DNA from: a virus
Lineage: Duplodnaviria > Heunggongvirae > Uroviricota > Caudoviricetes
Direction: 5' to 3' (one strand)
IMG/VR virus record: IMGVR_UViG_3300043313_000558
DNA length: 13,989 nt
A program made the position numbers and the translations under genes. This document shows, piece after piece, positions 2,863-13,989 of this stretch (positions are counted from its first letter, which is position 1; every line of letters starts with the position of its first letter). The notes beneath the pieces were generated by a model. It had not been told where the DNA came from. It was given only the letters and a program-made list of their open reading frames with translations, and made no database searches.

Positions 2863-3861
2863 TCAGGCGACAGCGTTCGCGAGGAAGACGCCGACGTCCT
2901 TGGAGATCAGCCGCATGTCGTAGGTCATCTCACCCTCGATGCGGTCGGACCGGATGTTCTCCTGACGGAACCGGCTCATCCGGATGCCCTGGCTGTTCCC
3001 AGAGAGGTAGCCGTTCCAGGTGAACGTGTAACCCGAGGCGGGCTGCATGATCGACGGCGAGCTCGGGGTGTAGCACAGGAGGACACCGTTGGGGTTGGCG
3101 ATGAAGCCGTAGCTGGCTGCGAGGTCCTGGGCCTTGGCGTCCGGGATCTGCGGGCCGGTGCTCACCGTCGCGTAGCTGACCAGGATCCGGTCCACATCGA
3201 ACAGCGTGGAGATCAGGTCGGTGGTGACGATGCCCTTTTGGGTGTACTTGATCCGGTCAATGATCGCCGGGTGGTTCTTGAGCGACTTCAGCACGTTCGC
3301 GCCCATGACCATGGTGTTGGCCTTGAACCCGGTGGACTGGATGAACGCGATCTGCAGCGTGGCCAGCTGGGAGATCGGGTCCGAGGTCGCCAGGTTCCAC
3401 TGGAGGAACTGGTTACCGGTCGGGTTGGAGCCCACACCGGTGTAGTCCGCGCCCCACACGCCCGCCTTGAAGTAGGTGGCCGCCCAGTCGATGTCCCGCT
3501 TGAGCAGGAGCTGGTTGGTCACGAAGCTCGTGGCGTCGGAGTCCAGCTTGAAGTTGGAGTCCGCGTTGGCTCGCAGCTGGTCGTCGATGTCCTTGTGGAC
3601 GCCGTAGACGTGCGCGAAGTAGGTGTCCGTGTCCACGTTCCAGCCGACACCCGGGGTCTCGGTGGACGGGGCCCGACGTTCGACGTCGGTACGCCGCCAG
3701 TCGGACTTGGAGTACTTCCAGTACAGGTCGGACTGCTTCTGGACCTGGACCAGTGGGAACACCTTGGTCGCGATGAAGGCGTCGGCCTTCTGGATATACG
3801 CGACGGAGACGTTGGTGAGGGGCTGGTTAATGTGCAGGTCAGCCTGAGTGGGGTTCGGCAT
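2863..3861 (-). CDS. Major capsid protein (HK97 fold, lambda gpE-like family), 332 aa
   Basis: 'LHINQPLTNVSVAY.Q....FIA..VFP.V.V.KQSD.Y..Y' N-terminus typical of this capsid family. SD GAAAGGA. Directly follows scaffold and decoration genes. Confidence 0.93.
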   Translation of the reverse strand: MPNPTQADLHINQPLTNVSVAYIQKADAFIATKVFPLVQVQKQSDLYWKYSKSDWRRTDVERRAPSTETPGVGWNVDTDTYFAHVYGVHKDIDDQLRANADSNFKLDSDATSFVTNQLLLKRDIDWAATYFKAGVWGADYTGVGSNPTGNQFLQWNLATSDPISQLATLQIAFIQSTGFKANTMVMGANVLKSLKNHPAIIDRIKYTQKGIVTTDLISTLFDVDRILVSYATVSTGPQIPDAKAQDLAASYGFIANPNGVLLCYTPSSPSIMQPASGYTFTWNGYLSGNSQGIRMSRFRQENIRSDRIEGEMTYDMRLISKDVGVFLANAVA

Positions 3862-3876
3862 TAGTCAGATCCTTTC

Positions 3877-4287
3877 TCAGGACAGCCGCAGGAGGACTGG
3901 AAACAGGACGTTTGCTCCAGATGCCGCCCCGAGGGCTACCCCCATCACGTCGGCCGCCGTGGTCGTGGTAACTCCACGGCCCTGCGCATCCGAGGTGACG
4001 AGATCGCCAGCCGCGACGGCGGCACTGGCCATCACGTTGGTCACCCCGAAGATGCCCACCTGGGCAGCTTGTCCGGTGACCTGGGGCTTGTTCTGCATGA
4101 CGCCCACCGCGTTATCGGTGGCCGCGACGGCCAGACCCACCTGGTGAAGGCCGGTGACCTTCACGAAGCGGTACTGGAAACCGTAGTTAACGGCGGGTGC
4201 ACCCGGGATGCCCGGGACTCCCGTGTACACGGCCAGGGAGGCATCCGCGTTCAGCGAGATGCTCTTTAGGCTCTCTTCGTAGCTCAT
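3877..4287 (-). CDS. Capsid decoration/cement protein (DUF2190-like beta-tulip type), 136 aa
   Basis: 'YRFVKV......A....AVGV.QNKP..GQAA.V...G.T.V.A...VAAGD.VTSDA.GR.V......G.AL..A' pattern, located between scaffold and capsid. SD GAAAGGGA. Confidence 0.8.
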   Translation of the reverse strand: MSYEESLKSISLNADASLAVYTGVPGIPGAPAVNYGFQYRFVKVTGLHQVGLAVAATDNAVGVMQNKPQVTGQAAQVGIFGVTNVMASAAVAAGDLVTSDAQGRGVTTTTAADVMGVALGAASGANVLFPVLLRLS

Positions 4288-4302: not shown

Positions 4303-5010
4303 TCAGCCGCGCTCGGCGAGGTACTGGTCGTAGGCCTCGGGGTTCTGACCGAAGACCTCGGAGACGAGCTCTTCCCGCGAGTAGTTCGCGCCCTTGGCGA
4401 CGTAGCCGTCGACGTGGGCGTTGACCATGGCGAGGACGTCGGAGTTGTCTCCGCCGCCGACCGAACCGATCTCCTCGTAGAGGACGTTCCCGGCGTCGGA
4501 AGCGAAAGCGAGGGCCTTACCGATGACCTCGCAGTCCTCGAAGCTGAGCTTCTCGGCCGCGTGCTTGAGGGTCTCGCCGAGCTGCTCGGCGTTCAGGCCC
4601 GGGAGGTCGTAGCTCTTGGCGATCTCCACGTACTCCTGGGTGAGCCGGATGTCGCGCTCTTCCTCGGCAGCCCGCTTGGCGATCTCGGTGGCCTCGGTGA
4701 GGGCCTCGATCTGGGAGAAGGCCTTGTTGATGACCGCGTCACGGTCACGGTCGGTGAGGGCCTTGGAAAGCTCCTCACGCAGGCCTTCGGAGAAGCCCTT
4801 GGCGACCGGCTGGCGCTGGGTCTCCCGCTTGGCGAAGGGGTTGGTGAAGGACTTGGCCACGGCGAGCTCGGGCTCACGCTCTTCGACCTGCTCTTCGGTG
4901 TCGTCGTCAGCCTGGATCTCGTAGGCGTCGCCAGTAGCGTCGTAGACCACGTCACCGATCTCCAGAGCATCCTCGTCGAGCGGGTTGCCCAGCTCGTCAT
5001 AGATGTCCAT
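4303..5010 (-). CDS. Scaffolding protein, nested short form starting at Met43 (MDIYDELG..., 235 aa)
   Basis: In-frame ATG at 5010 preceded by TAAGGAG at a 6-nt spacing, a stronger SD than that of the long form. Confidence 0.6.
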   Translation of the reverse strand: MDIYDELGNPLDEDALEIGDVVYDATGDAYEIQADDDTEEQVEEREPELAVAKSFTNPFAKRETQRQPVAKGFSEGLREELSKALTDRDRDAVINKAFSQIEALTEATEIAKRAAEEERDIRLTQEYVEIAKSYDLPGLNAEQLGETLKHAAEKLSFEDCEVIGKALAFASDAGNVLYEEIGSVGGGDNSDVLAMVNAHVDGYVAKGANYSREELVSEVFGQNPEAYDQYLAERG

Positions 5011-5136
5011 GTAGTTCTCCTTATCGCCATCGGCAGACTTTGCGATGGTCACGGTCGCGTGCTGGTTAGCACCCTTATCCACCAGAGAGATCTCGTCGAT
5101 GACGAGGTCCTGGATTTCTCTCACCTTGCGGGTCAT
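4303..5136 (-). CDS. Scaffolding protein, long form (277 aa), with an N-terminal prohead-protease fragment (EISLVDKGAN)
   Basis: Acidic, helical, coiled-coil-like body upstream of decoration and capsid genes. The first ~33 aa match the 'l..l.i.E[IV]SLVD..AN..A.....K' segment of HK97/XkdF-type proteases. SD GAGG. Confidence 0.8.
   Translation of the reverse strand: MTRKVREIQDLVIDEISLVDKGANQHATVTIAKSADGDKENYMDIYDELGNPLDEDALEIGDVVYDATGDAYEIQADDDTEEQVEEREPELAVAKSFTNPFAKRETQRQPVAKGFSEGLREELSKALTDRDRDAVINKAFSQIEALTEATEIAKRAAEEERDIRLTQEYVEIAKSYDLPGLNAEQLGETLKHAAEKLSFEDCEVIGKALAFASDAGNVLYEEIGSVGGGDNSDVLAMVNAHVDGYVAKGANYSREELVSEVFGQNPEAYDQYLAERG
5017..5023 (-). promoter_or_regulatory. Internal Shine-Dalgarno site TAAGGAG inside the scaffold gene
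   Basis: TAAGGAGAACTACATG. The same TAAGGAGAAC 10-mer precedes the 30-aa gene (2810-2801). Confidence 0.65.
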
Positions 5137-5178
5137 CTTCTCTACCTCGCTTCTAGTCTCGTGGGCTGCGCAATAGGC

Positions 5179-6810
5179 TCACGAGGACGTGATCCGATGC
5201 AGGGGTCGATAGGTCTTCCCCTTCTTGTGCTGGTAGCTACCGACACGGTCGGAGGCCACCGCCAGACCCACTGCTCCCAGACCGAGCGCACCGGCCTTGG
5301 TTGCGGTTCGAGCTCCACCGCGGATCCCGCTGGATGGCTTCTTCCACTGCCCGGCGATGTCAGAACGAAGTCCGGTTCCGTGGTGTCGGACCACGCCGCC
5401 CTTCAGCTTTTCGCCGTCCGGGACCGGGATGTCCTTGCCCTTGGTGCCCAGTGCCCGGTGACCCAGAACCGCGCCATAGGTAGCCGACGCACCTGAGCCC
5501 ACGGCCAGGGCAGTGGCGGTGTGCTCGTTACGCCGTCTGCGCTTGGCCTCGGGGTTGTAGGTGGCGGCCTTGCCGAAAGGAGACCGACGACCGGCCTCGT
5601 AGGACCCGCCGACGGCTGCTACCGCGGTGCCACCTACAGCAGCTCCTCCGGCGAGGGCCTTCTTGTTGGAACGTCCGGTCGTCGGCGGATTGGTGGGTGC
5701 CGTGGCCGGGGCAGGACGAGCTGCCATCGGAGCCGGGACCGGTGGGTTGGCTGTGGCCAGCGGGGCCGTAGTCGGCTGCTGCCAGGCGTTGAGCTGACGG
5801 GCGTTCGGGTTGGTCTTCACAGCGCGGTGTCGTCCCCCTGAGGGGGCCTTGCCACCAGCGTGGCGCGCACCGGAGGAGACCTTGACCGCCTTTGCCCCAT
5901 GCTTGGCGGTGGCCCCATGCTTACCGGCGTACTTTGCAGCACCGCCGAAGCTGAGCTTGGAGACCTCTTCGTAGGTGAGCGCCTTGCCGAACCGCTTGCG
6001 CTGTCCGACCTGGTTGGCCCCGTAAGCCCCGGCTCCCACGGTGGCCACGCCCCCAGTAGCCGCAGTGCCCACGCCCAGCTTGGTCATCTTGAACTTGGCC
6101 GCGTGACCCGTGGTGGTCGAAGCACCTCCAGCTCCGGTGACGGTCCGCTGGACACCCGCTGAGCGCTTGAAGAACGGGTTGTTGACCGCGCTGGTCTTGG
6201 TCGTCGAGGTCGAGACCGGGCCCTTCATCCCCACCGTCGTGGTCTTCTTCGGAGCGAAGGTCGCGCCCTTGAAAGGACTGGCCACCTTCTTGGCAGCTCC
6301 GGCGATGCCACTGAAGCCGAGCGCCTTGGTGACCAGTTCGGCATCGCCCTGGTGGACGTCACTGAGCCCGTAGTCCATCATGTCGAGTCCCTTCGTCACC
6401 GGCTCGGTCCCGGCCTTGATGTTCTTGATCTGCTTCTTGTTACGGACCACGTAGACGGTCTGCTTCGGGCCGCGCTTCTTGCTTTCCTGGTTCTGGATGG
6501 AGGCGAAGTTGTAGGCCCCGACCCCGCTGATACCAGCACCGACGGCACTGACCGCCGGGATGTGGGGCTTGAGTTTGGGGACCTTCTTGGTCGCCAACAG
6601 CATGCCCAGGCCGCCCAGACCGACGGTTCCACCGGCCAGCGAGGTGACCGCGGAGGCCTTCTTCTGAGCTCGCAGCCGCTTCTCGCTGGAGACGAACTTG
6701 GCGACCCGCTCCTTCTTGCGCTTGGACCGGATCTCGGCGTCCCACTTGGCGGCGATGTCCGGGTGCTTGGCGTGCAGGTAACGACGCTGCGCGTCGGACT
6801 TGTAGGGCAT
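5179..6810 (-). CDS. 543-aa basic, Gly/Ala-rich modular protein with six glycine-zipper-like hydrophobic segments; putative internal/ejection polyprotein
   Basis: Start moved from 6921 to ATG 6810 (MPYKSDAQRR...): TGATG overlap with the protease stop and SD GGAGG at 6819-6815. Composition and modules were read from the translation. Function is inferred. Confidence 0.75.
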   Translation of the reverse strand: MPYKSDAQRRYLHAKHPDIAAKWDAEIRSKRKKERVAKFVSSEKRLRAQKKASAVTSLAGGTVGLGGLGMLLATKKVPKLKPHIPAVSAVGAGISGVGAYNFASIQNQESKKRGPKQTVYVVRNKKQIKNIKAGTEPVTKGLDMMDYGLSDVHQGDAELVTKALGFSGIAGAAKKVASPFKGATFAPKKTTTVGMKGPVSTSTTKTSAVNNPFFKRSAGVQRTVTGAGGASTTTGHAAKFKMTKLGVGTAATGGVATVGAGAYGANQVGQRKRFGKALTYEEVSKLSFGGAAKYAGKHGATAKHGAKAVKVSSGARHAGGKAPSGGRHRAVKTNPNARQLNAWQQPTTAPLATANPPVPAPMAARPAPATAPTNPPTTGRSNKKALAGGAAVGGTAVAAVGGSYEAGRRSPFGKAATYNPEAKRRRRNEHTATALAVGSGASATYGAVLGHRALGTKGKDIPVPDGEKLKGGVVRHHGTGLRSDIAGQWKKPSSGIRGGARTATKAGALGLGAVGLAVASDRVGSYQHKKGKTYRPLHRITSS

Positions 6811-7796
6811 CAGACCTCCATGTCCTTGCGCACACCAGACCCATGGATGCTGAACTCCTTGAGCTTGCCGTCCTTGTAGGACTGCCAGGTGTCGTCGTCG
6901 TTGATCTGGAAGCCCACCCACCAGCCGGTCGGGGTGGTGGTGGGCAGCCCCATCTGCTCCTTCTTCTCCGGAGTGAGCACGAAGGACTCGATCATGTCGC
7001 TCACGTGCAGCGGCTCCTCGCCGTTGCGCTGGTGTTGACGACCGCCCTTGCGGGACTTGTGCACGTAGTCGTACGCGGCCTTCTCGATGGTCTCGATGGT
7101 CATCACGTCGTCCTGCAGGTCGATCACCGGCTCGCCGTTCATCTCGATCACCGAGGCCCAGCCGAACACCTGCTTGAGGTCGACGTTCATCTTGGAGACC
7201 TCACCACGCACGGTGAAGTCGACGTCGTCCTTGCGCACTACCTCGACGGCCTTCTGGCTCAGATCCGGGGCCATCTGAGCTCGGGCCATCGTCGTCGCGG
7301 CGACCTTGGGAGCTTGCTTAGCCCCGGTCCCGACGGCGTTGACCCCCTTCTTGACCAGCTTGTACTTGATCTGCTTGGCGTCCGGAGCGTTCTTCTTAAC
7401 CAGCTTCTTGTGGGTCTCGGGCTTCTTCGCACTGCGAGCCAGCACCCGGTTGGCCACCGCGTCACCGGCGATGTTGGCTACCTGCAGGCCCAGTGCACCA
7501 CCGGCGAGCATCGCCCCGGCACGGCCCTTCTTGCTGGAGATCGGAGAAGGCAGCTTCCCGGACTTCTCGTGCAGCCACTTGGCGGCCTTGCCGCCTTCCT
7601 TGAACCGGTCGTCACGCAGCGCAGCCGCCGTACCAGCGATGCCAGCACCCAGACCCACCACATTGGAGGCCAGCCCGACCCGGGCCTGGGTCTGCTGGTT
7701 CTTCTGCTGCTTGGTCATGGCCTTGGTGATCTCGTAGGCACCATCGCCATAAAGGACGTCGAGCACCTCGATGACGCGCTGCTGGTCCTGGTTCAC
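6810..7796 (-). CDS. Prohead (capsid maturation) serine protease, XkdF-like domain (about 6813-7229), with a 189-aa N-terminal extension
   Basis: 'KQVFGWASV.....VID.QDD....E.IEKAAYDY......G..H.......ESFV......G.....GWWVGF.I.DD..W...K.G....FSIHG' matches the XkdF/S78-like protease pattern, with candidate catalytic His (7032-7034) and Ser (6849-6851). GTG start with GTGA overlap. Confidence 0.85.
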   Translation of the reverse strand: MNQDQQRVIEVLDVLYGDGAYEITKAMTKQQKNQQTQARVGLASNVVGLGAGIAGTAAALRDDRFKEGGKAAKWLHEKSGKLPSPISSKKGRAGAMLAGGALGLQVANIAGDAVANRVLARSAKKPETHKKLVKKNAPDAKQIKYKLVKKGVNAVGTGAKQAPKVAATTMARAQMAPDLSQKAVEVVRKDDVDFTVRGEVSKMNVDLKQVFGWASVIEMNGEPVIDLQDDVMTIETIEKAAYDYVHKSRKGGRQHQRNGEEPLHVSDMIESFVLTPEKKEQMGLPTTTPTGWWVGFQINDDDTWQSYKDGKLKEFSIHGSGVRKDMEV

Positions 7797-9859
7797 GTTC
7801 TCATTCTCCCGTCGCCTTCAACAGGCCCCTGGAACCGCTCGGGCTCGGTCTCGATTCGGATGAACGGAATACCGTCCAAGGTGACGTCGTCTTCGGTGTC
7901 CCAGTCGACCTCGCGCCAGCGCCCAGGGTTGACCCACACATCGGCTACTGCCCACGGGGCCTTATCGGTGGATCCTGGATGACCGTGCGCGGTCTCGATC
8001 ACGTACGGCAGGTTTTGACGGACCAGCTCGTCGATTTCCAGCTGCTCGGCCAGCTCCACGGGATTGGCCAGAACCACGGCATCCGCGTAATGGGCCTGGC
8101 CTTGGAGCTCGACCTTGTTCTCCTGCAGCTTTCCGTCCGGGTACTTCATCCCGTTGAGGTAGGCGTCCAGAGCCAGGCCGTAAGCCTCGTCATCGATGAC
8201 AAACCTGCGCTGCGACCACGGGTCGGTGTAGGTCATCGGCGGTCCGGCGGCGTAGTCGTCGACCAGCCGGTTGATCGTCGCGTTCCAGTGCTGCGCCAGA
8301 GCTCGGTTTAGCGAGGACCCATGGGTGTCGGTATCGGACGGAGTGTGCTTTTCGTAGAACTCCATATCCTTGGGGGCTTTGAAGACCCCCTTGGATGAAT
8401 ACTGCTCATACTCCTTGCGGGTGACCACCGTGGCCAGCGAGAAGCCCAGCGGATACCAGGTCTCGTTGTTGTCGTCCACGATCGGCTCGTTGACCAGGAT
8501 GGTTCGTGGCGGGCGTGCCAGCTTGGGGTTCGACTTCGGCTGCAGCGGAACTCGTTGACGACCTAGCCCACTGCGCCGTAGCTGATCACGAGCATGAAGT
8601 TCAGGACGGGTCTCGGAAAGCTGTGGCCCACCCAGCTTGGGCCTGGCCTTCTCGCCCAGCTTGCTGGCCCCACCCAGCTTGCTGGCTCCACCGAGCTTGG
8701 ACCCGCCCAGTTTGGCTCCACCCAGCTTCTCTCTGGGCTTAACCTGCTCTTCCTCCACCGGTGCGGGGATGGTCAGGGTCCGGTTGACCTGAGCCAGCAT
8801 CTCGTCGACCTCGGCCTCGCGCTCCTTGTAGCGGGTGGTCCGGGACTCCACCCGAGCGAACCGCCCACGCTTATCACGGTCGAACTTGTCGGTGGCATAG
8901 GCCTTGGCCACACTCTCGGACGCCAGCAGCTCGTCGAGTTCTTCTTGTACCTCGTCGGATAGATCCAGGATTACGTCGCAGCGGCAGTTCACGTGCGTAG
9001 GTGGAGACCAGAACATCCCCGCCGGGGTGAAGAACTTCGTCGAGACCAGCTCGGCTACCCCGTCCATCGGTCCGCAGATCTCGCAGACCTTCTCGTCATC
9101 GGCGGTGATCCATCGACGCCGGGCGTAAGCCGGGATCACCCCGTTGTTTACGCCGTAAAGCCAGACCATCTGCTTGCCCTGGGTACGTGCTGCCCAGGCC
9201 TCGTTGTCACCGACCTGTCGAGCTCGCAGCTGGTTGGCGGCCACGATCAGGGCATGGGCTCGGTCCGCCTTGGCTGAGGGCAGCACCTGGTCGGTGACGT
9301 TCTTGGGGTCCTCGCCAGACCAGATGTTGACCAGGGTGTTCATGCTGCGCTGCGGCACCCCGTAGGCGTCCGCGATCCGCTGGGCCGCCATGATCGGGGG
9401 CACCTTGCGGTTGACCTGGGCCTGGTAGCCAGAGAGCACTGCATCCAGAGAGACCTCGTTGAGGTGCATCCCCAGCTCTTCGGCGTAGTCCTGGGCGACT
9501 CCCATCAGGATCTCCCGGGGCACGTCCCCGAGCTTTGCGTCCTCGATCCCTTCGATGTACCCGGCGACCAGGTACGGAGCGGTCATCGATACCCAGCGTG
9601 GAACGAAGGCGCTCCAGATCCCCGCTGCTGCTCCGCCCAGGGCCTTGTAGGTCATCGTGTGACCGATGCTCTTCACCTCGTCCCCGAGCCGACGGGACAT
9701 GTAGGCCCGGTAGACCAGGTAGGCAGCACCCAGACCGAGCGCGGCCTTGACCACACCATGGCCGCCCTTGACGGCCGTTTCCTGCTCCAGCTCAGGTGGA
9801 GTCAGCAGAGCTGCGTACGGGTCGACCAGCTCGTAGGGGTCTGGGATGACAGCCGTCAT
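7793..9859 (-). CDS. MuF / SPP1 gp7-like head morphogenesis (minor capsid) protein with a ~369-aa C-terminal extension, 688 aa
   Basis: 'RRWITADDEKVCEICGPMDG...PPTHVNCRC' (about 8975-9125) is the MuF signature. TGATG coupling and SD GGGAGGG. Confidence 0.9.
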   Translation of the reverse strand: MTAVIPDPYELVDPYAALLTPPELEQETAVKGGHGVVKAALGLGAAYLVYRAYMSRRLGDEVKSIGHTMTYKALGGAAAGIWSAFVPRWVSMTAPYLVAGYIEGIEDAKLGDVPREILMGVAQDYAEELGMHLNEVSLDAVLSGYQAQVNRKVPPIMAAQRIADAYGVPQRSMNTLVNIWSGEDPKNVTDQVLPSAKADRAHALIVAANQLRARQVGDNEAWAARTQGKQMVWLYGVNNGVIPAYARRRWITADDEKVCEICGPMDGVAELVSTKFFTPAGMFWSPPTHVNCRCDVILDLSDEVQEELDELLASESVAKAYATDKFDRDKRGRFARVESRTTRYKEREAEVDEMLAQVNRTLTIPAPVEEEQVKPREKLGGAKLGGSKLGGASKLGGASKLGEKARPKLGGPQLSETRPELHARDQLRRSGLGRQRVPLQPKSNPKLARPPRTILVNEPIVDDNNETWYPLGFSLATVVTRKEYEQYSSKGVFKAPKDMEFYEKHTPSDTDTHGSSLNRALAQHWNATINRLVDDYAAGPPMTYTDPWSQRRFVIDDEAYGLALDAYLNGMKYPDGKLQENKVELQGQAHYADAVVLANPVELAEQLEIDELVRQNLPYVIETAHGHPGSTDKAPWAVADVWVNPGRWREVDWDTEDDVTLDGIPFIRIETEPERFQGPVEGDGRMRT
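8627..8728 (-). repeat. Six degenerate in-frame KLG(G) tandem repeats
   Basis: KLGGA-KLGGS-KLGGAS-KLGGAS-KLGEKARP-KLGG, 34 codons. On the plus strand the recurring unit is CCCAGCTT. Confidence 0.9.
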
Positions 9860-12800
9860 CAGCCCTCCCAGTCAGGATCCTCGGCCCGCAGCGCTCGCAG
9901 AATGGTCTCCACCTCCGGGCCGTAGTCCTCCTCGAAGCCCTTGGGCAGCTTCTGCATCGCCGAGAACATGGCCTTATGGTCGCGGTACTCGATCGCCGAG
10001 GCCAGGTCCTTAAGGTTCTCGGCCTCCTCGGTGCTCAGCTGCGAAGTTTTGATGTAGCCCTTAACGTCGGCAGCCGTGCGGTCCAGCACCTTGTCGCTCA
10101 GCTGGGACTTCGCGCTAATCGGGGCCTGGCTGATATGCCGCATCAGAGCCTGTGAGGCGTGCGAGTAGATCGAGGGCAGCTTCTCCACTGCGGCCATCTG
10201 CTCGGCGGAGGAACCCTGCGCGAAGGCCTGACGAACCGCCTTGACCGCGTTCTTGTGGTCCTGCGGAGCATCCGGGTGGTTGGTCGAGACCTCCATATCC
10301 TTGATCAGAGCGTCGACGTCGACCGAGCTACGGTCCTCGGTCTCATGTGGGCTCTTACCGTGCTGGAGCTTCTCGGTGCGAGCGACCACCTGGGACTGGA
10401 CCACCGACCCGGCGGGCGGGGTACTGGGACCGGTCAGCGGAGCATCCCCGGCAGCGGCCTTGACCGAACGCAGTCGGATCAGCCCCTTGGCCTTCTTCTC
10501 GGTGTTCTCCACGACCTTGGCTAGTGCCGCCTTGTTGCCCTTGTCGAACACCTCGGTGCGCAGGTCCTCGATCATGGTGTCGCCCATGCCGACCTTGGTC
10601 AGTGAGGTCTCCAGCTCGGTCCAGGACTTTTCATCGCCCGGGTTTTCGCTCATCTTGCGGGCCGCCAGGTTGGCACGCGACCAGCGGGTCTGGTGAGCTC
10701 GCAGGATGTCGTCGTTGTCGTTTGGCGAGACGAACTTACCCAGCTCGTGCTCTTGCAGAGCACGGTTCCACTCCTGGGCGTAGACCTGTGGGTTCTCTGC
10801 GTCCGGGGAGTGCGCCGGTACCTTGGCCCAGCGCTGCGGGTGCGGGTTGACGAAGCTGGGGTCCCAGGTGGACTGGTCGAACGGGTTACGGGACTGCAGC
10901 CTGCCCTCAGCCTTCTTGGCCGTGGTACGCAGGTCATCCAGCGAAGCGTGGATCGCCTTCCACTCGCTTTCCTTGGACCGTCCAGCCAGGTCGGTGACGT
11001 GATCCAGCTCATCCATCAGCTTGGACACTTCGGCGGTAGAGAACAGCTCCAGGTCTGGGTTGGCCTTGAACTTGGCCAGCATCTTCAGCGAGTCGCGCTC
11101 TTCGGCGTCGATGTCGGTCCAGATCCTGGCGGCCTCCGTTGCCAGCGCACCCACCGCGGCGTTGCGTCGCTCCTCGTCAGCGACCCGCTCCCGGGCATCA
11201 CGAGCTCGCTGCCCTTTGGGCGCGTTGGCTTCCACCTTCGTCTCGCCCTCGGCTGCGTTCTCGTGCACCTCGCTGGGGCCCTGGTGACGGGCGTTCTGGT
11301 AGTGCATCTCGGAGGCCGAAAACTTGCCGGACTCGCCCTTCAGACCCTGGATCTTCGGGTCGTAGTAGCCCTCCCGAGCCGCCTCGGGGCGGTTGTAGTT
11401 GGGCCGGACATAGCCAGTGTCCTTCTCACCCGCGCCACGCGGGATCTTCTTGACTTCGACCCGCTGCACGAAGTACGGGAACTGCTCTTGCAGGGCCTGC
11501 ATCGCGGCCTCGTAGCCGTCCGCATCCAGCTGGTACATCCGCTTGGACTTGCCCTCCATGGCCTGGTCGTACATGTCGGAGTAGTAGGCCTTGTAGCGCA
11601 GCTTGGGGTCAGAAGGCATCCGTTCGCTTCCCGGAGAGACCTTGGAGGCGTCGTAGGAGTGGGTGGCCTGAACGGCTGCGTCCTCGATGTCCTGGATCTC
11701 GCCCTTGGTCAGCCGCGGGTTGGCCATGAACTCCCGCTCGCGCTCCGCGATCTTGGCCTCGATCTCGGTCTTGGAGTAGCCCTGGCCTTCCAGCTCGGTC
11801 TCCACGTCGTCACGGATCTCTCCGCGCTCGCCCGGGGTGAGCTTGCGCTGGGCGACCTTGCCGGACTTGACCGCGTCGAGGGTCTGGGCGTAACGCCCGA
11901 CCATCTGCCGGGCCTTGTCGGAGTACCGCCGCCCACCACGCAGGTGGTCGTCGAAGTCCAGGGTGAACACCCCGGAGCGGGAGACCACGGTGACACTGCG
12001 AGCCCCACCGACCAGGCCGGTGTAGATGTCCTCGCTGGTCAGCCCACCAGAGCTGCGGGTGCGCACGTAAGCCCCGCCCTTGAGGCCCTTGAGGTTTTTG
12101 AGGTTGAACGGCAGGTAGTGGTCCTCCTGGTAGCCGACCGCCTGTGTGACGATCTCGCCCTCGGAGTTGATGATCACGCCCTCGCTGGGCGGGATCTTGC
12201 CGGAGTTCAGCTGCAGGTCAGCCAGGCGCTTAGAGGGCAGCCGCTTGACCAGGTAACCCACCGAGGCATCCTCAGCAGCGGCCATGTTCTGCTCATCGGT
12301 CAGTTCCGGGGTGCCACCGACTCGGTTGAAGTCCCGGTCCGAGAAGGTCCGCTTCCGCAGCGTGCCCTTGGCCTGCTCATGGTAGCGAGCCAGCTGCTTG
12401 TCCGGCTCCCGCTCGGTGCCCCGGTACCGGTACGCAGTGCGTCGGGCAGCCGGACCGATCACCTTCTCGGCCTCGGGACCGAACTGACCAGCGAACTGAC
12501 CCACCTGGGAGGCCAGCTTGGCGTGCTCACCGGGCAGGTGACCGAGCAGCTCAGCACCGGCAGCGACCCGTCGGTAGGTGCGCTCGTTCGTCCGGTGGTC
12601 GTTGGGACCCTGCTCGGTCCAGCGCTCCGCGAAGGACGATCCGGCCTTCCCGGTCCGATTCAGGGCACCGGTGACATCGATCCCGGGACGCTCTTCACCC
12701 TGCTGACGGGGCTTGGCGTAGCTCTTCGGACCCTTGCCGCGTTCGTAGTGCACCGAAGGACCGGTCGCACCGATCCGCACCCACTTGCCGCCCTTGCCAC

Positions 12801-13086
12801 GGGGCTGCTCGGCGTGGTGCAGCTCTTCCCAGTTGGTATCCCAGTCGTCCTTTCGGATGACCATCCGCTTGGAGACTTCCTCGCGCAGAGCAGGCTGAAG
12901 GTCATCCATCAGCGACTTCTGAACTTCCTCGACGTGACGGTCGAGAGTGCGCCGGTTGTTCTCGATGTCCTGCTTGTGGACCTCGTACACGAAAAACTGC
13001 GCGAACATCTGCGCCTCATCGGGGTCCATGCCCGACATCGACTTGGTGATCCACTGCGCCACTTCGTGGTTAAAGAAATCGTCCAT
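9859..13086 (-). CDS. Large probable internal virion protein, 1075 aa, with a degenerate JAB/MPN-like domain and long helical regions
   Basis: Start moved from 13509 to ATG 13086 (SD AGGAGG at 13097-13092, 5-nt spacing), because the longer frame overlaps the fibre gene and reads as shadow sequence. Coupled to the MuF gene by TGATG. Domain call is by eye. Confidence 0.75.
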   Translation of the reverse strand: MDDFFNHEVAQWITKSMSGMDPDEAQMFAQFFVYEVHKQDIENNRRTLDRHVEEVQKSLMDDLQPALREEVSKRMVIRKDDWDTNWEELHHAEQPRGKGGKWVRIGATGPSVHYERGKGPKSYAKPRQQGEERPGIDVTGALNRTGKAGSSFAERWTEQGPNDHRTNERTYRRVAAGAELLGHLPGEHAKLASQVGQFAGQFGPEAEKVIGPAARRTAYRYRGTEREPDKQLARYHEQAKGTLRKRTFSDRDFNRVGGTPELTDEQNMAAAEDASVGYLVKRLPSKRLADLQLNSGKIPPSEGVIINSEGEIVTQAVGYQEDHYLPFNLKNLKGLKGGAYVRTRSSGGLTSEDIYTGLVGGARSVTVVSRSGVFTLDFDDHLRGGRRYSDKARQMVGRYAQTLDAVKSGKVAQRKLTPGERGEIRDDVETELEGQGYSKTEIEAKIAEREREFMANPRLTKGEIQDIEDAAVQATHSYDASKVSPGSERMPSDPKLRYKAYYSDMYDQAMEGKSKRMYQLDADGYEAAMQALQEQFPYFVQRVEVKKIPRGAGEKDTGYVRPNYNRPEAAREGYYDPKIQGLKGESGKFSASEMHYQNARHQGPSEVHENAAEGETKVEANAPKGQRARDARERVADEERRNAAVGALATEAARIWTDIDAEERDSLKMLAKFKANPDLELFSTAEVSKLMDELDHVTDLAGRSKESEWKAIHASLDDLRTTAKKAEGRLQSRNPFDQSTWDPSFVNPHPQRWAKVPAHSPDAENPQVYAQEWNRALQEHELGKFVSPNDNDDILRAHQTRWSRANLAARKMSENPGDEKSWTELETSLTKVGMGDTMIEDLRTEVFDKGNKAALAKVVENTEKKAKGLIRLRSVKAAAGDAPLTGPSTPPAGSVVQSQVVARTEKLQHGKSPHETEDRSSVDVDALIKDMEVSTNHPDAPQDHKNAVKAVRQAFAQGSSAEQMAAVEKLPSIYSHASQALMRHISQAPISAKSQLSDKVLDRTAADVKGYIKTSQLSTEEAENLKDLASAIEYRDHKAMFSAMQKLPKGFEEDYGPEVETILRALRAEDPDWEG

Positions 13087-13130
13087 GAAAGCCTCCTGGG
13101 TCCATCCTCCCGGGCGTAGCCAGTGAGGCC

Positions 13131-13989
13131 TTACGCGTCGGCGGGGAAGGGAGCCACGGTGATCGAGGTCCACTGCGCGACCAGGCCATACATCCCGCTG
13201 ACGTTCCCGGTCAGCTGAACGTCGATACGGGCGGTCGCGCCACCCGGCGAGCAGACCGTCGCGTTCATATGGTCGAAAGGCGGCCGGAACCCCACTGGCA
13301 GAGTACCCATCACGGTCTGGTTGGCGATCGTGCCGTTTTTGAGCAGCCCTCGCACATAGACGATCCCACCGACCTTGCGGAACGACGCGGGCGGATAGGT
13401 ACCCGAGGTCACGTAGTCCACCCAGCCGTTGGACAGCGGCAGCGGGATCCAGCCGGTGTCGCAGTACGGGCTGTTGTCGATCTTGGTCACCGAGAAGTCG
13501 TCGAAGCACACCGTGGAGCCGGTGCTGGGCAGGTTGTTGAAGACCCGGAAAGCGGCCCGGGTGACCCCAGCCGGGATCGGACCGACGATCAGGAAGACCT
13601 GGTACCAGGTGCTGGCGGCGGCCAGGTTCCTGTTCTCGAACTGGAAGGCGGTGTTGGTGGGCAGCATGGTCGCGTTGTTGTGGCCCGGATACTCGGTCAG
13701 GGCATCGTCACTACCCCCGACCAGGCGCACATAGAGGCTCAAGGCCCCGGCGGTGGTCTTGGCCGCCCAACAGGAAGCCAGGTAGTACTGCCCCTCTTCG
13801 ACGTCGAAGTTCGGACCCAGTGCACTGACCGTGTTGGTCGGTGACCCGGCGCTGGAGGTGGACAGTCGCAGCGACTGTGCGCCGCTGTGAACCAGGGTGC
13901 CATCCAGAACACAGGCGATCGCACCACCGGCACCCAAGGCGGTGCTGGCGATCCGGTACTGGTCGGAGTACAACGAGAAGTCGCTGATG
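13131..13989 (-). CDS. Fibre / receptor-binding minor structural protein, 3' part (5' end outside the window)
   Basis: The frame stays open past the TTG at 13973 to the window edge. A jelly-roll carbohydrate-binding-like segment ('GAQSLRL...YYLASCWA...WYQV....P.G...A.F........CFDDFSV') is followed by the C-terminal 'DTGW..L.L.NGW....FRKVGGIVYVRG.....GTLPVGFRP' domain common in phage fibres. Confidence 0.8.
   Translation of the reverse strand, partial: ISDFSLYSDQYRIASTALGAGGAIACVLDGTLVHSGAQSLRLSTSSAGSPTNTVSALGPNFDVEEGQYYLASCWAAKTTAGALSLYVRLVGGSDDALTEYPGHNNATMLPTNTAFQFENRNLAAASTWYQVFLIVGPIPAGVTRAAFRVFNNLPSTGSTVCFDDFSVTKIDNSPYCDTGWIPLPLSNGWVDYVTSGTYPPASFRKVGGIVYVRGLLKNGTIANQTVMGTLPVGFRPPFDHMNATVCSPGGATARIDVQLTGNVSGMYGLVAQWTSITVAPFPADA

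Follow-up and report, generated by a model that had tools for sequence, protein, structure and literature searches.

The window analysed here, a 13,989-nt stretch of DNA from an uncultured soil phage, carries a head module in which all features described below lie on the minus strand. Open reading frames define a protease gene of 328 aa (6810-7796), a gene of 543 aa (5179-6810) and a scaffold-like gene of 277 aa (4303-5136) located directly upstream of a decoration-like gene and the major capsid gene, giving the gene order protease, putative cargo, scaffold, decoration-like gene and major capsid gene. Residues 1-185 of the protease form a Gly-zipper-rich N-terminal extension, and residues 186-328 (6813-7241) form an XkdF-type catalytic core, as assigned by PF14550 and by PHROG head-maturation-protease families. 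PF14550 covers residues 200-322 (profile positions 5-123 of 126) with 64.3 bits against a cut-off of 24 (E 1.5e-17), by which the protein is a clear member of this family with predicted proteolysis of head proteins. The core contains His255 (7032-7034) and Ser316 (6849-6851), named H70 and S131 in core numbering. Neither residue varies among 51 relatives; both align with equally invariant positions, His71 and Ser113, in relatives with the whole domain in one chain (single-chain forms), and follow the same order as His65 and Ser114 of HK97 gp4. The chain terminates with KLKEFSIHGSGVRKDMEV and a TGA stop codon at 6812-6810, and the core ends only 12 residues past Ser316. The E-[IV]-S-x-V-x-x-[PG]-A-N strand was found neither in this protease nor in any of its 150 nearest protease representatives, and the chain falls short of a complete PF04586 domain by the last hairpin strand of the S78 fold. 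Sequence searches of the PDB with the protease and the scaffold gave no meaningful match for either protein.

The scaffold protein begins with MTRKVREIQDLVIDEISLVDKGANQHATVTIAKS. Its residues 1-42 (5011-5136) are assigned as the detached protease strand segment on the basis of conservation, profile alignment and co-folding. Conservation in this segment is 0.92 and 0.89, compared with 0.35-0.86 elsewhere in the scaffold across 104 homologues. The best-conserved part comprises residues 11-33 (5038-5106), within which D14-N24 (5065-5097) carry the motif EISLVDKGAN. A relaxed pattern of this motif, run over all six frames of the window, occurs a single time, on the scaffold. The scaffold has 478 homologues in total, and its residues 3-205 match the PHROG 3270 protease-scaffold profile downstream of its protease part (positions 100-285 of 603). 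The synteny around the gene is preserved in a relative, L001, and a tblastn search of the scaffold against cultured phages returned no match. Its position and its relationship with the scaffold portions of protease-scaffold fusions mark the gene as scaffold-like, and its Atlas model is of low confidence (pLDDT 0.57). A preliminary description of the locus had proposed a prohead protease split over two non-adjacent genes, with the XkdF-like domain ending at 6813, the completing motif at 5097-5065 in the scaffold N-terminus and a complete 543-aa gene in between. The coordinates and sequences agree with each of these statements, and the profiles below map the two parts to consecutive S78 segments.

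The two gene products jointly reproduce the S78 domain colinearly. In hhalign comparisons, the core aligned to columns 19-131 of the single-chain profile (probability 97.4, E 1.3e-11), and columns 138-172 were matched by the scaffold N-terminus (probability 97.1, E 4.9e-11). The single-chain relatives match two Pfam families, PF14550 over positions 5-122 of 126 and PF04586 over positions ~8-154 of 165; therefore, PF14550 represents the part of the S78 profile before its last ~30 positions, and its model reaches no further than the Ser strand, like the protease in the window. Against Pfam Peptidase_S78, the scaffold N-terminus aligned to positions 127-156 of 165 with E 0.04 and 14.5 bits, under the cut-off of 21. 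HK97 gp4 (MEROPS S78, PF04586) resembles the split pair in its catalytic His and Ser, in its element order, in its place in the head module and in the E-I-S-x-V-x-x-x-A-N strand (motif at 139-160), with an identical spacing of 27 residues from Ser to the motif Glu. The difference is that the HK97 strand lies in the protease chain, whereas here it forms the beginning of the scaffold protein, whose gene is separated from that of the protease by a further gene. When HK97 gp4 is aligned without gaps over 47 residues, with the catalytic Ser as anchor, 11 positions are identical, a number reached by 5 of 100,000 shuffles; the scores of HK97 gp4 against the family HMMs were too weak for use alone.

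The structure prediction for a single-chain relative reached a pLDDT of 85.7, with 94-98 over residues 31-150. In this model, the Ser strand (residues 111-122) and the motif strand (residues 125-140) follow each other directly in a hairpin-like arrangement. The model matches T4 gp21 (Z 11.5, rmsd 2.5, 118 residues aligned) and herpesvirus proteases (Z 8-11) through the motif strand, and the hits ranked below gp21 comprise 37 herpesvirus protease entries before an unrelated fold first appears at Z 5.8. In the single-chain relative, the Ser and motif strands are thus predicted to form one confident hairpin within the T4 gp21/herpesvirus-protease fold. T4 gp21 (PDB 5JBL) and the herpesvirus assemblins (HCMV, VZV and PrV proteases) share this fold but are single chains.

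For the co-fold, protease residues 186-328 and scaffold residues 1-42 were modelled together along with three controls. The score was 0.71 for the pair, with a partner pLDDT of 64-65, and 0.00 for the best control. Of 80 solved complexes, 58 attain the mark applied to this score, as do 2 of 110 mismatched pairs; both counts are rough, as our own alignments were used. At least 90% of the contacts are shared between runs. Scaffold residues 7-17 run antiparallel to core residues 130-139, the Ser316 strand, and the interface takes in scaffold residues 2-33. The scaffold strand is therefore predicted by the model to dock antiparallel on the Ser316 strand and to restore the hairpin of the single-chain forms, and the split probably docks the protease onto the scaffold; the confidence of the co-fold may also reflect a likeness to single-chain folds learned by the prediction model. 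The earlier suggestion that the scaffold segment is the missing strand of the S78-type fold thus gains support from profile mapping, HK97 spacing, fold predictions and the controlled co-fold, and the co-fold, which had been proposed to see whether the peptide completes the barrel and active site, predicted an antiparallel pairing. A scaffold N-terminus with no profile match to protease strands had been named as evidence against the suggestion; the match to single-chain forms was found at the E value given above.

Two further features were identified in the scaffold downstream of the strand. An internal ribosome-binding site, AAGGAG (5017-5022), is followed after a 6-nt spacer by an in-frame ATG (5008-5010) encoding Met43. 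A Shine-Dalgarno-like site with an ATG or GTG 14-33 codons past the motif is present in 37 of 41 distinct family scaffolds, whereas among NTG codons in frame further along these ORFs, taken as the comparison, 13-14% have such a site. An independent sample gave the internal start in 17 of 24 split forms against 13-14% of control windows. This conserved start after the strand suggests a putative short scaffold form that lacks the strand. The second feature is the island E-L-A-V-A-K-S (residues 90-96; 4849-4869), embedded in a variable acidic linker. Its family consensus is E-x-x-V-G-K-S, with V93 conserved in 98, K95 in 102 and S/A96 in 92 of 104 homologues, and a similar (D/E)-E-I-G-K-[SA] stretch follows the core in 10 of 29 relatives with a continuing protease ORF. 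We infer that the island is a candidate maturation cleavage site, at which the strand segment would be cut loose from the rest of the scaffold.

The split was found in 62 of 62 distinct family loci holding both parts, none of them fused; loci were counted only where enough downstream DNA was present. It was also identified in seven phage records, six of them cultured (RcZahn, Summit, CRP-6, RDJL Phi 1, RHph_Y1_11, RSP and MT835491), as well as in 23 of the 120 viral loci bearing the motif. All 40 split cores fall on one side of a single branch (SH-aLRT 99), and, at E values up to 0.001, the clade comprises about 3,200 cluster representatives. As far as these sequence comparisons reach, the split, no peculiarity of this phage, is ancient and normal throughout the XkdF-type clade. 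Regarding the states among relatives, the preliminary description had called for a survey of fused, permuted and split forms. Split and single-chain states were both encountered, a scan of genome contigs yielding only single-chain forms, in Alphaproteobacteria. The permuted state, with the strand before the core in one chain, was absent from the 120 motif-bearing viral loci and from the 150 nearest protease representatives. The coordinates of the PHROG 3017 profile hint at forms with an N-terminal strand, and PBSX XkdF is presumably such a permuted form with the strand at its own N-terminus.

We favour the reading, with a probability of roughly 0.62, that the window encodes a two-gene prohead protease of the HK97/S78 superfamily whose return hairpin strand is supplied by the scaffold N-terminus, including the following steps of docking, tethering, activation and isoform production. 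The protease gene would supply the barrel through the catalytic-Ser strand, and the scaffold N-terminus would supply the return strand I-D-E-I-S-L-V-D-K-G-A-N. The docked strand may tether the protease non-covalently to the long scaffold form, by which the protease would be carried into the prohead, and docking may order the active-site strand such that full activity needs the scaffold. Initiation at Met43 would generate a short scaffold without the strand and set the protease-to-scaffold ratio, in a manner similar to lambda C/Nu3 and herpesvirus UL26/UL26.5. Cleavage at the V-[GA]-K-[SA] island would then detach the strand segment from the scaffold body. A wider proposal, which we put forward tentatively and consider somewhat doubtful, is that all XkdF-type prohead proteases are obligate two-component enzymes. 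The strand, present only on the minor long isoform, would close the barrel beside the Ser and in some lineages may give an acidic third catalytic residue, so that proteolysis would be licensed only inside the assembling prohead; the arrangement would be the phage counterpart of adenovirus protease and pVIc, having arisen once and been kept in a large clade.

Long and short scaffold pairs are known from the nested protease-scaffold genes of lambda C/Nu3, Mu I/Z and P2 gpO, which have an in-frame internal start. The herpesvirus UL26/UL26.5 genes likewise nest protease and scaffold and give a minor long and a major short form (PMC11565193). The candidate start at Met43 with its AAGGAG would resemble the start of these nested genes, but their long form carries the whole protease covalently, in contrast to the one strand and the non-covalent joining proposed here. 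A peptide cofactor that adds a beta-strand is found in adenovirus protease/pVIc, flavivirus NS2B-NS3 and HCV NS3-NS4A, for which the dependence of activity is proven, and the adenovirus strand donor is a capsid-protein precursor. If our reading holds, the phage pair would be alike in that a peptide of another viral protein ties activity to place and time; unlike it, these enzymes have unrelated folds with no homology, and the cofactor-dependent activity of the phage protease is a conjecture. In gp21-type enzymes, the third catalytic residue is located about 25 residues after the Ser (PMC5694885), and this position corresponds roughly to the place of the detached strand, in which Asp14 and Glu15 of the scaffold would be the candidates for such a role. 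A catalytic role of the motif Glu is not general, because the Glu is not conserved in the split lineages RcZahn, Summit and RHph_Y1_11.

How prohead proteases are delivered to the procapsid and kept silent until assembly is known for a few model phages only. A protease with its last strand in the scaffold offers a simple, testable solution for a clade that is large and for the most part unexplored and, if true, docking, the stoichiometry of long and short scaffold and possibly activation would all arise from one strand. In the papers searched for XkdF-type or PF14550 proteases, we found annotation mentions only, with no description of a split, a missing strand or a scaffold partner. The analysis also corrects annotation, as the partner genes are filed as hypothetical proteins, some XkdF cores are filed as DNA methyltransferases, and PF14550 is a domain that ends short of the last strand.

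Modelling of the core alone bears on an alternative in which the strand is a packaging signal and nothing else, the core being folded and active by itself and restrained by other means. Five models of the split core had pLDDT values of 80.5, 68.6, 63.4, 63.1 and 61.8. The best structural match in the PDB was T4 gp21 (5jbl_A; Z 7.9, rmsd 4.2, 107 residues aligned), followed by herpesvirus proteases (Z 5.4). From its best model, gp21-like at 80.5, the core might fold and act without a partner. The variation of the motif Glu in several split lineages points the same way, and in work by Duda and colleagues from 2013 the C-terminal part of HK97 gp4 reportedly acts in capsid targeting. Against this alternative, the docking site is the catalytic-Ser strand itself, which is poorly ordered in models without the partner (pLDDT about 60 over the last 20 residues), and the strand is an integral and very confident part of the barrel in single-chain relatives. 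The core alignment is less diverse than the single-chain set (mean column identity 56% versus 37%), and the low confidence of the core alone may stem from this rather than from real instability. On balance, we consider a pure tether unlikely.

The predicted interface includes residues near His255 and Ser316, as would fit a scaffold N-terminus that acts as a pseudo-substrate or first cleavage site and holds the protease inactive until assembly. [quoted passage not shown] Such a substrate-like or inhibitory peptide is improbable here, however, as the segment takes the place, in linear order, of a structural strand in the single-chain proteases, at a spacing identical to HK97, and the conserved island proposed for cleavage follows about 75 residues later. 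Less credible still, and in our view very improbable, is a motif that is merely left from an ancestral protease-scaffold fusion and kept for another job such as portal or capsid binding. While a present-day contact cannot follow from sequence homology alone, no other block of the scaffold is as conserved as the strand among the homologues, each split protease with enough flanking DNA has a strand-keeping partner, and the co-fold passes with its controls at zero.

At the junction between the parts, the ATG of the 543-aa gene (6810-6808) overlaps the protease stop (ATGA), and the scaffold start lies about 1.7 kb (1.67 kb) downstream of the protease. A single chain made by frameshifting, read-through, splicing or removal of a mobile insert finds some appeal in the shared frame of the 543-aa and scaffold genes, with one TGA and 14 sense codons between them, but is hardly conceivable given that the protease frame differs from that of the 543-aa gene, that joining would put 543 residues inside the hairpin, and that the protease-scaffold gap varies from -3 to 4815 nt among relatives and is filled with ordinary genes. 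Fusion by recoding or splicing was rejected because relatives with adjacent genes retain two distinct ORFs that lie in different frames, overlap in ATGA fashion and have start sites of their own. The 543-aa protein matches no family in Pfam or PHROG. It is basic, Gly/Ala-rich and mostly disordered (Atlas model pLDDT 0.47), is built of glycine-zipper modules, and is conserved only in the C-terminal ~40 aa with respect to its 530-aa counterpart in L001. It is probably a head-internal cargo protein and no part of the protease, and the site between the protease and scaffold genes is a hot spot for accumulating cargo genes.

The prohead protease domain of the phage is divided between two genes, and this division is old and conserved. 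The 328-aa protease (6810–7796, minus strand, like all genes of interest in the window) ends in ...KLKEFSIHGSGVRKDMEV, and its TGA overlaps the ATG of a 543-aa gene (5179–6810, minus). This gene stands complete between the protease gene and that of the 277-aa scaffold-like protein (4303–5136, minus), as the preliminary description had it. PF14550 (XkdF type) matches protease residues 200–322 with 64.3 bits (cut-off 24 bits); since profile positions 5–123 of 126 are covered, the PF14550 domain is complete, and it does stop directly after the Ser strand, the match ending at residue 322. The scaffold N-terminus reads MTRKVREIQDLVIDEISLVDKGANQHATVTIAKS, and its motif strand (D14–N24) was located at 5097–5065, the coordinates first assigned to it. 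A relaxed pattern in six frames found the motif once in the window, at the scaffold N-terminus only.

At the sequence level, four independent lines identify the scaffold N-terminus as the missing protease piece: library profiles, bridging relatives, profile-profile mapping, and HK97 gp4. Scaffold residues 4–33 match positions 127–156 of 165 of Pfam Peptidase_S78 weakly (E 0.04, under the cut-off), and the equivalent peptide of phage CRP-6 matches positions 131–160 (E 0.0085). Several PHROG head-maturation-protease profiles were also matched, at internal positions just past a core-sized stretch. An IMG/VR DNA-pattern scan for the motif yielded 120 loci, 92 of which are single-chain, with the motif 20–31 residues after the Ser strand (S-[IV]-G-x) in the same ORF, while 23 are split and 5 are interrupted by contig ends. 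The single-chain proteins match PF14550 up to the Ser strand (positions 5–122 of 126) and also PF04586 through the motif (positions ~8–154 of 165); PF14550 thus corresponds to the part of the S78 profile before its last ~30 positions. In profile-profile comparison with the single-chain alignment, the core alignment of the window family maps to columns 19–131 (probability 97.4, E 1.3e-11). The N-terminal alignment of the scaffold does match protease strands: it falls on columns 138–172 (probability 97.1, E 4.9e-11), and the two segments are consecutive without overlap. HK97 gp4 carries His65, Ser114, and LREISVCTFPANEQAGIAAMKS at residues 139–160. Its Ser-to-Glu spacing of 27 residues equals that of the window, where it is made up of 12 protease residues after Ser and the scaffold up to Glu15. 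A gapless Ser-anchored alignment with gp4 gives 11/47 identities, equalled by 5 of 100,000 shuffles.

Structure prediction was carried out for the core (residues 186–328) and for a single-chain relative, L123. The best model of the split core alone reached pLDDT 80.5 and the remaining four 62–69, with the last 20 residues, Ser strand included, at about 60. Its best PDB match is T4 gp21 (Foldseek probability 0.84; VIA Z 7.9, rmsd 4.2, 107 aligned), followed by herpesvirus proteases at Z 4–5.4. The five L123 models are consistent (pLDDT 83–86; residues 31–150 at 94–98), although the more diverse single-chain alignment could by itself lift this confidence. In L123, the Ser strand (111–122) is directly followed by the motif strand (125–140) in a hairpin-like order, and the structural alignment range extends through the motif strand. 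For L123 the gp21 match reaches Z 11.5 (rmsd 2.5, 118 aligned), and 37 herpesvirus protease entries score Z 5.9–11, mostly at least 7; the best-scoring unrelated fold has Z 5.8.

Co-folding of the 143-residue core (51-row alignment) with scaffold residues 1–50 (42-row alignment) scored 0.71 (three runs 0.71, 0.71, and 0.73), against 0.00 for the best of three controls. Among solved complexes 58 of 80 attain the co-fold mark, and among mismatched pairs 2 of 110, counts that apply only roughly because the alignments were our own. At least 90% of contacts are shared between runs, with the scaffold partner at pLDDT 64–65. In the co-fold, the peptide is placed antiparallel at the Ser strand: core positions 131 (Ser316), 133, 135, and 138 contact scaffold residues 17, 14, 12, and 8. 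The protease C-terminus hence lies beside the scaffold N-terminus, as in a hairpin whose loop has been cut. The scaffold strand is thus predicted to pair with the Ser316 strand, and the co-fold, as a prediction, supports scaffold–protease binding; the pass may reflect likeness to single-chain folds.

At E ≤ 0.001, a core search retrieved 3,208 cluster representatives; among the best 150 of them, 117 stop within 15 residues past the core and none carries the motif in the protease. In a family sample of 80 IMG/VR loci, 62 distinct loci hold both parts, each with one motif-bearing ORF downstream of the protease in the same orientation. Protease stop and motif strand are -3 to 4815 nt apart (median 1.9 kb); genes intervene in 56 loci, and even the six adjacent pairs consist of two ORFs that lie in different frames and have ATGA-type overlaps. 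The interval is a hot spot for inserted genes across these 62 loci, and family locus L001 has two (151 and 530 aa). Of the fused, permuted, and split states envisaged among relatives, the survey recovered the split one (62 family loci, 23/120) and the fused one (92/120). The split also occurs in RcZahn, Summit, CRP-6, RDJL Phi 1, RHph_Y1_11, RSP, and a gut phage record, MT835491; six of these seven records are from cultured phages, and their partner genes are listed as hypothetical. In a tree of 122 cores with limited sampling and the motif columns left out, a single branch (SH-aLRT 99) separates all 40 split cores from the rest, and one state change suffices, versus a mean of 34.1 with shuffled labels. 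The tree is unrooted, so this single event could be a split or a fusion. Stand-alone XkdF-type cores within head modules carry the annotation DNA methyltransferase, or DNA methyltransferase/prohead protease (RDJL Phi 1 gp71, RHph_Y1_11 gene 149, PHROG 1530); as the 132-aa gp71 is a protease core only, its methyltransferase label has likely been propagated in error.

The strand region is the best-conserved scaffold block (0.92 and 0.89), and directly after it come AAGGAG and, following a six-base spacer, an in-frame ATG (Met43, 5008–5010). An SD-like site with ATG or GTG occurs at the equivalent place in 37/41 distinct family scaffolds, against a background of 14% per in-frame NTG codon further along the same ORFs. 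In an independent sample, it was found in 17/24 split forms, against 14% of control windows and only 23/83 single-chain forms. This suggests two putative scaffold forms, a long one with the strand and a short one without it. A second conserved island, E-x-x-V-[GA]-K-[SA] (residues 90–96; 4849–4869, minus), lies inside a variable acidic linker, with K95 kept in 102/104 homologues, and a similar (D/E)-E-I-G-K-[SA] is found just past the core in relatives with a continuing protease ORF; we infer that the island is a candidate cleavage site. The 543-aa protein contains RFGKA and PFGKA.

Through strand pairing, the protease would be tethered to the long scaffold form, so that the two co-assemble, and the active-site strand would become ordered; the long:short ratio would set the protease dose, and later cleavage would free the pieces. 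The gp21-type enzymes have a third catalytic residue, an Asp, about 25 residues past Ser (PMC5694885). Asp14 and Glu15 are invariant in the window's scaffold family, but the RcZahn, Summit, and RHph lineages do not retain the motif Glu. By family, the window protease belongs to the S78/assemblin superfamily as an XkdF-type (PF14550) protein, but it lacks the complete single-chain domain that marks S78; in the literature open to search, XkdF appears as an annotation label only. By its proposed mechanism, the arrangement resembles nested protease-scaffold systems, and it would resemble peptide-cofactor proteases, e.g. adenovirus protease with pVIc, if activity depends on the strand. Judged from sequence, the split reading is well supported, with its function predicted.

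Around these genes lie those of a major capsid protein (2863–3861, minus), a decoration/cement-like protein (3877–4287, minus), and a MuF-like head-morphogenesis protein (7793–9859, minus), the last with a K-L-G-G-type repeat run (KLGGAKLGGSKLGGASKLGGASKLG) at residues ~390–420 after a conserved Cys/His motif. A large ORF (9859–13509, minus; up to 1216 aa) without Pfam or PHROG match occupies the expected portal position; its L001 counterpart has 993 aa. An identical copy of the scaffold protein is present on a 58.7-kb JGI metagenome contig. The 543-aa and scaffold genes share one frame, separated by TGA and 14 sense codons (5137–5181, minus), probably by coincidence; read-through, if it occurs, would give a cargo-scaffold fusion. 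Glycine-zipper modules followed by basic tails run throughout the 543-aa gene, occur in the protease N-terminal extension (7400–7680, minus), and recur as 70–140-aa inserts in scaffold homologues P0026, P0029, P0076, and P0077; they resemble a cargo module shuffled among head-internal proteins.
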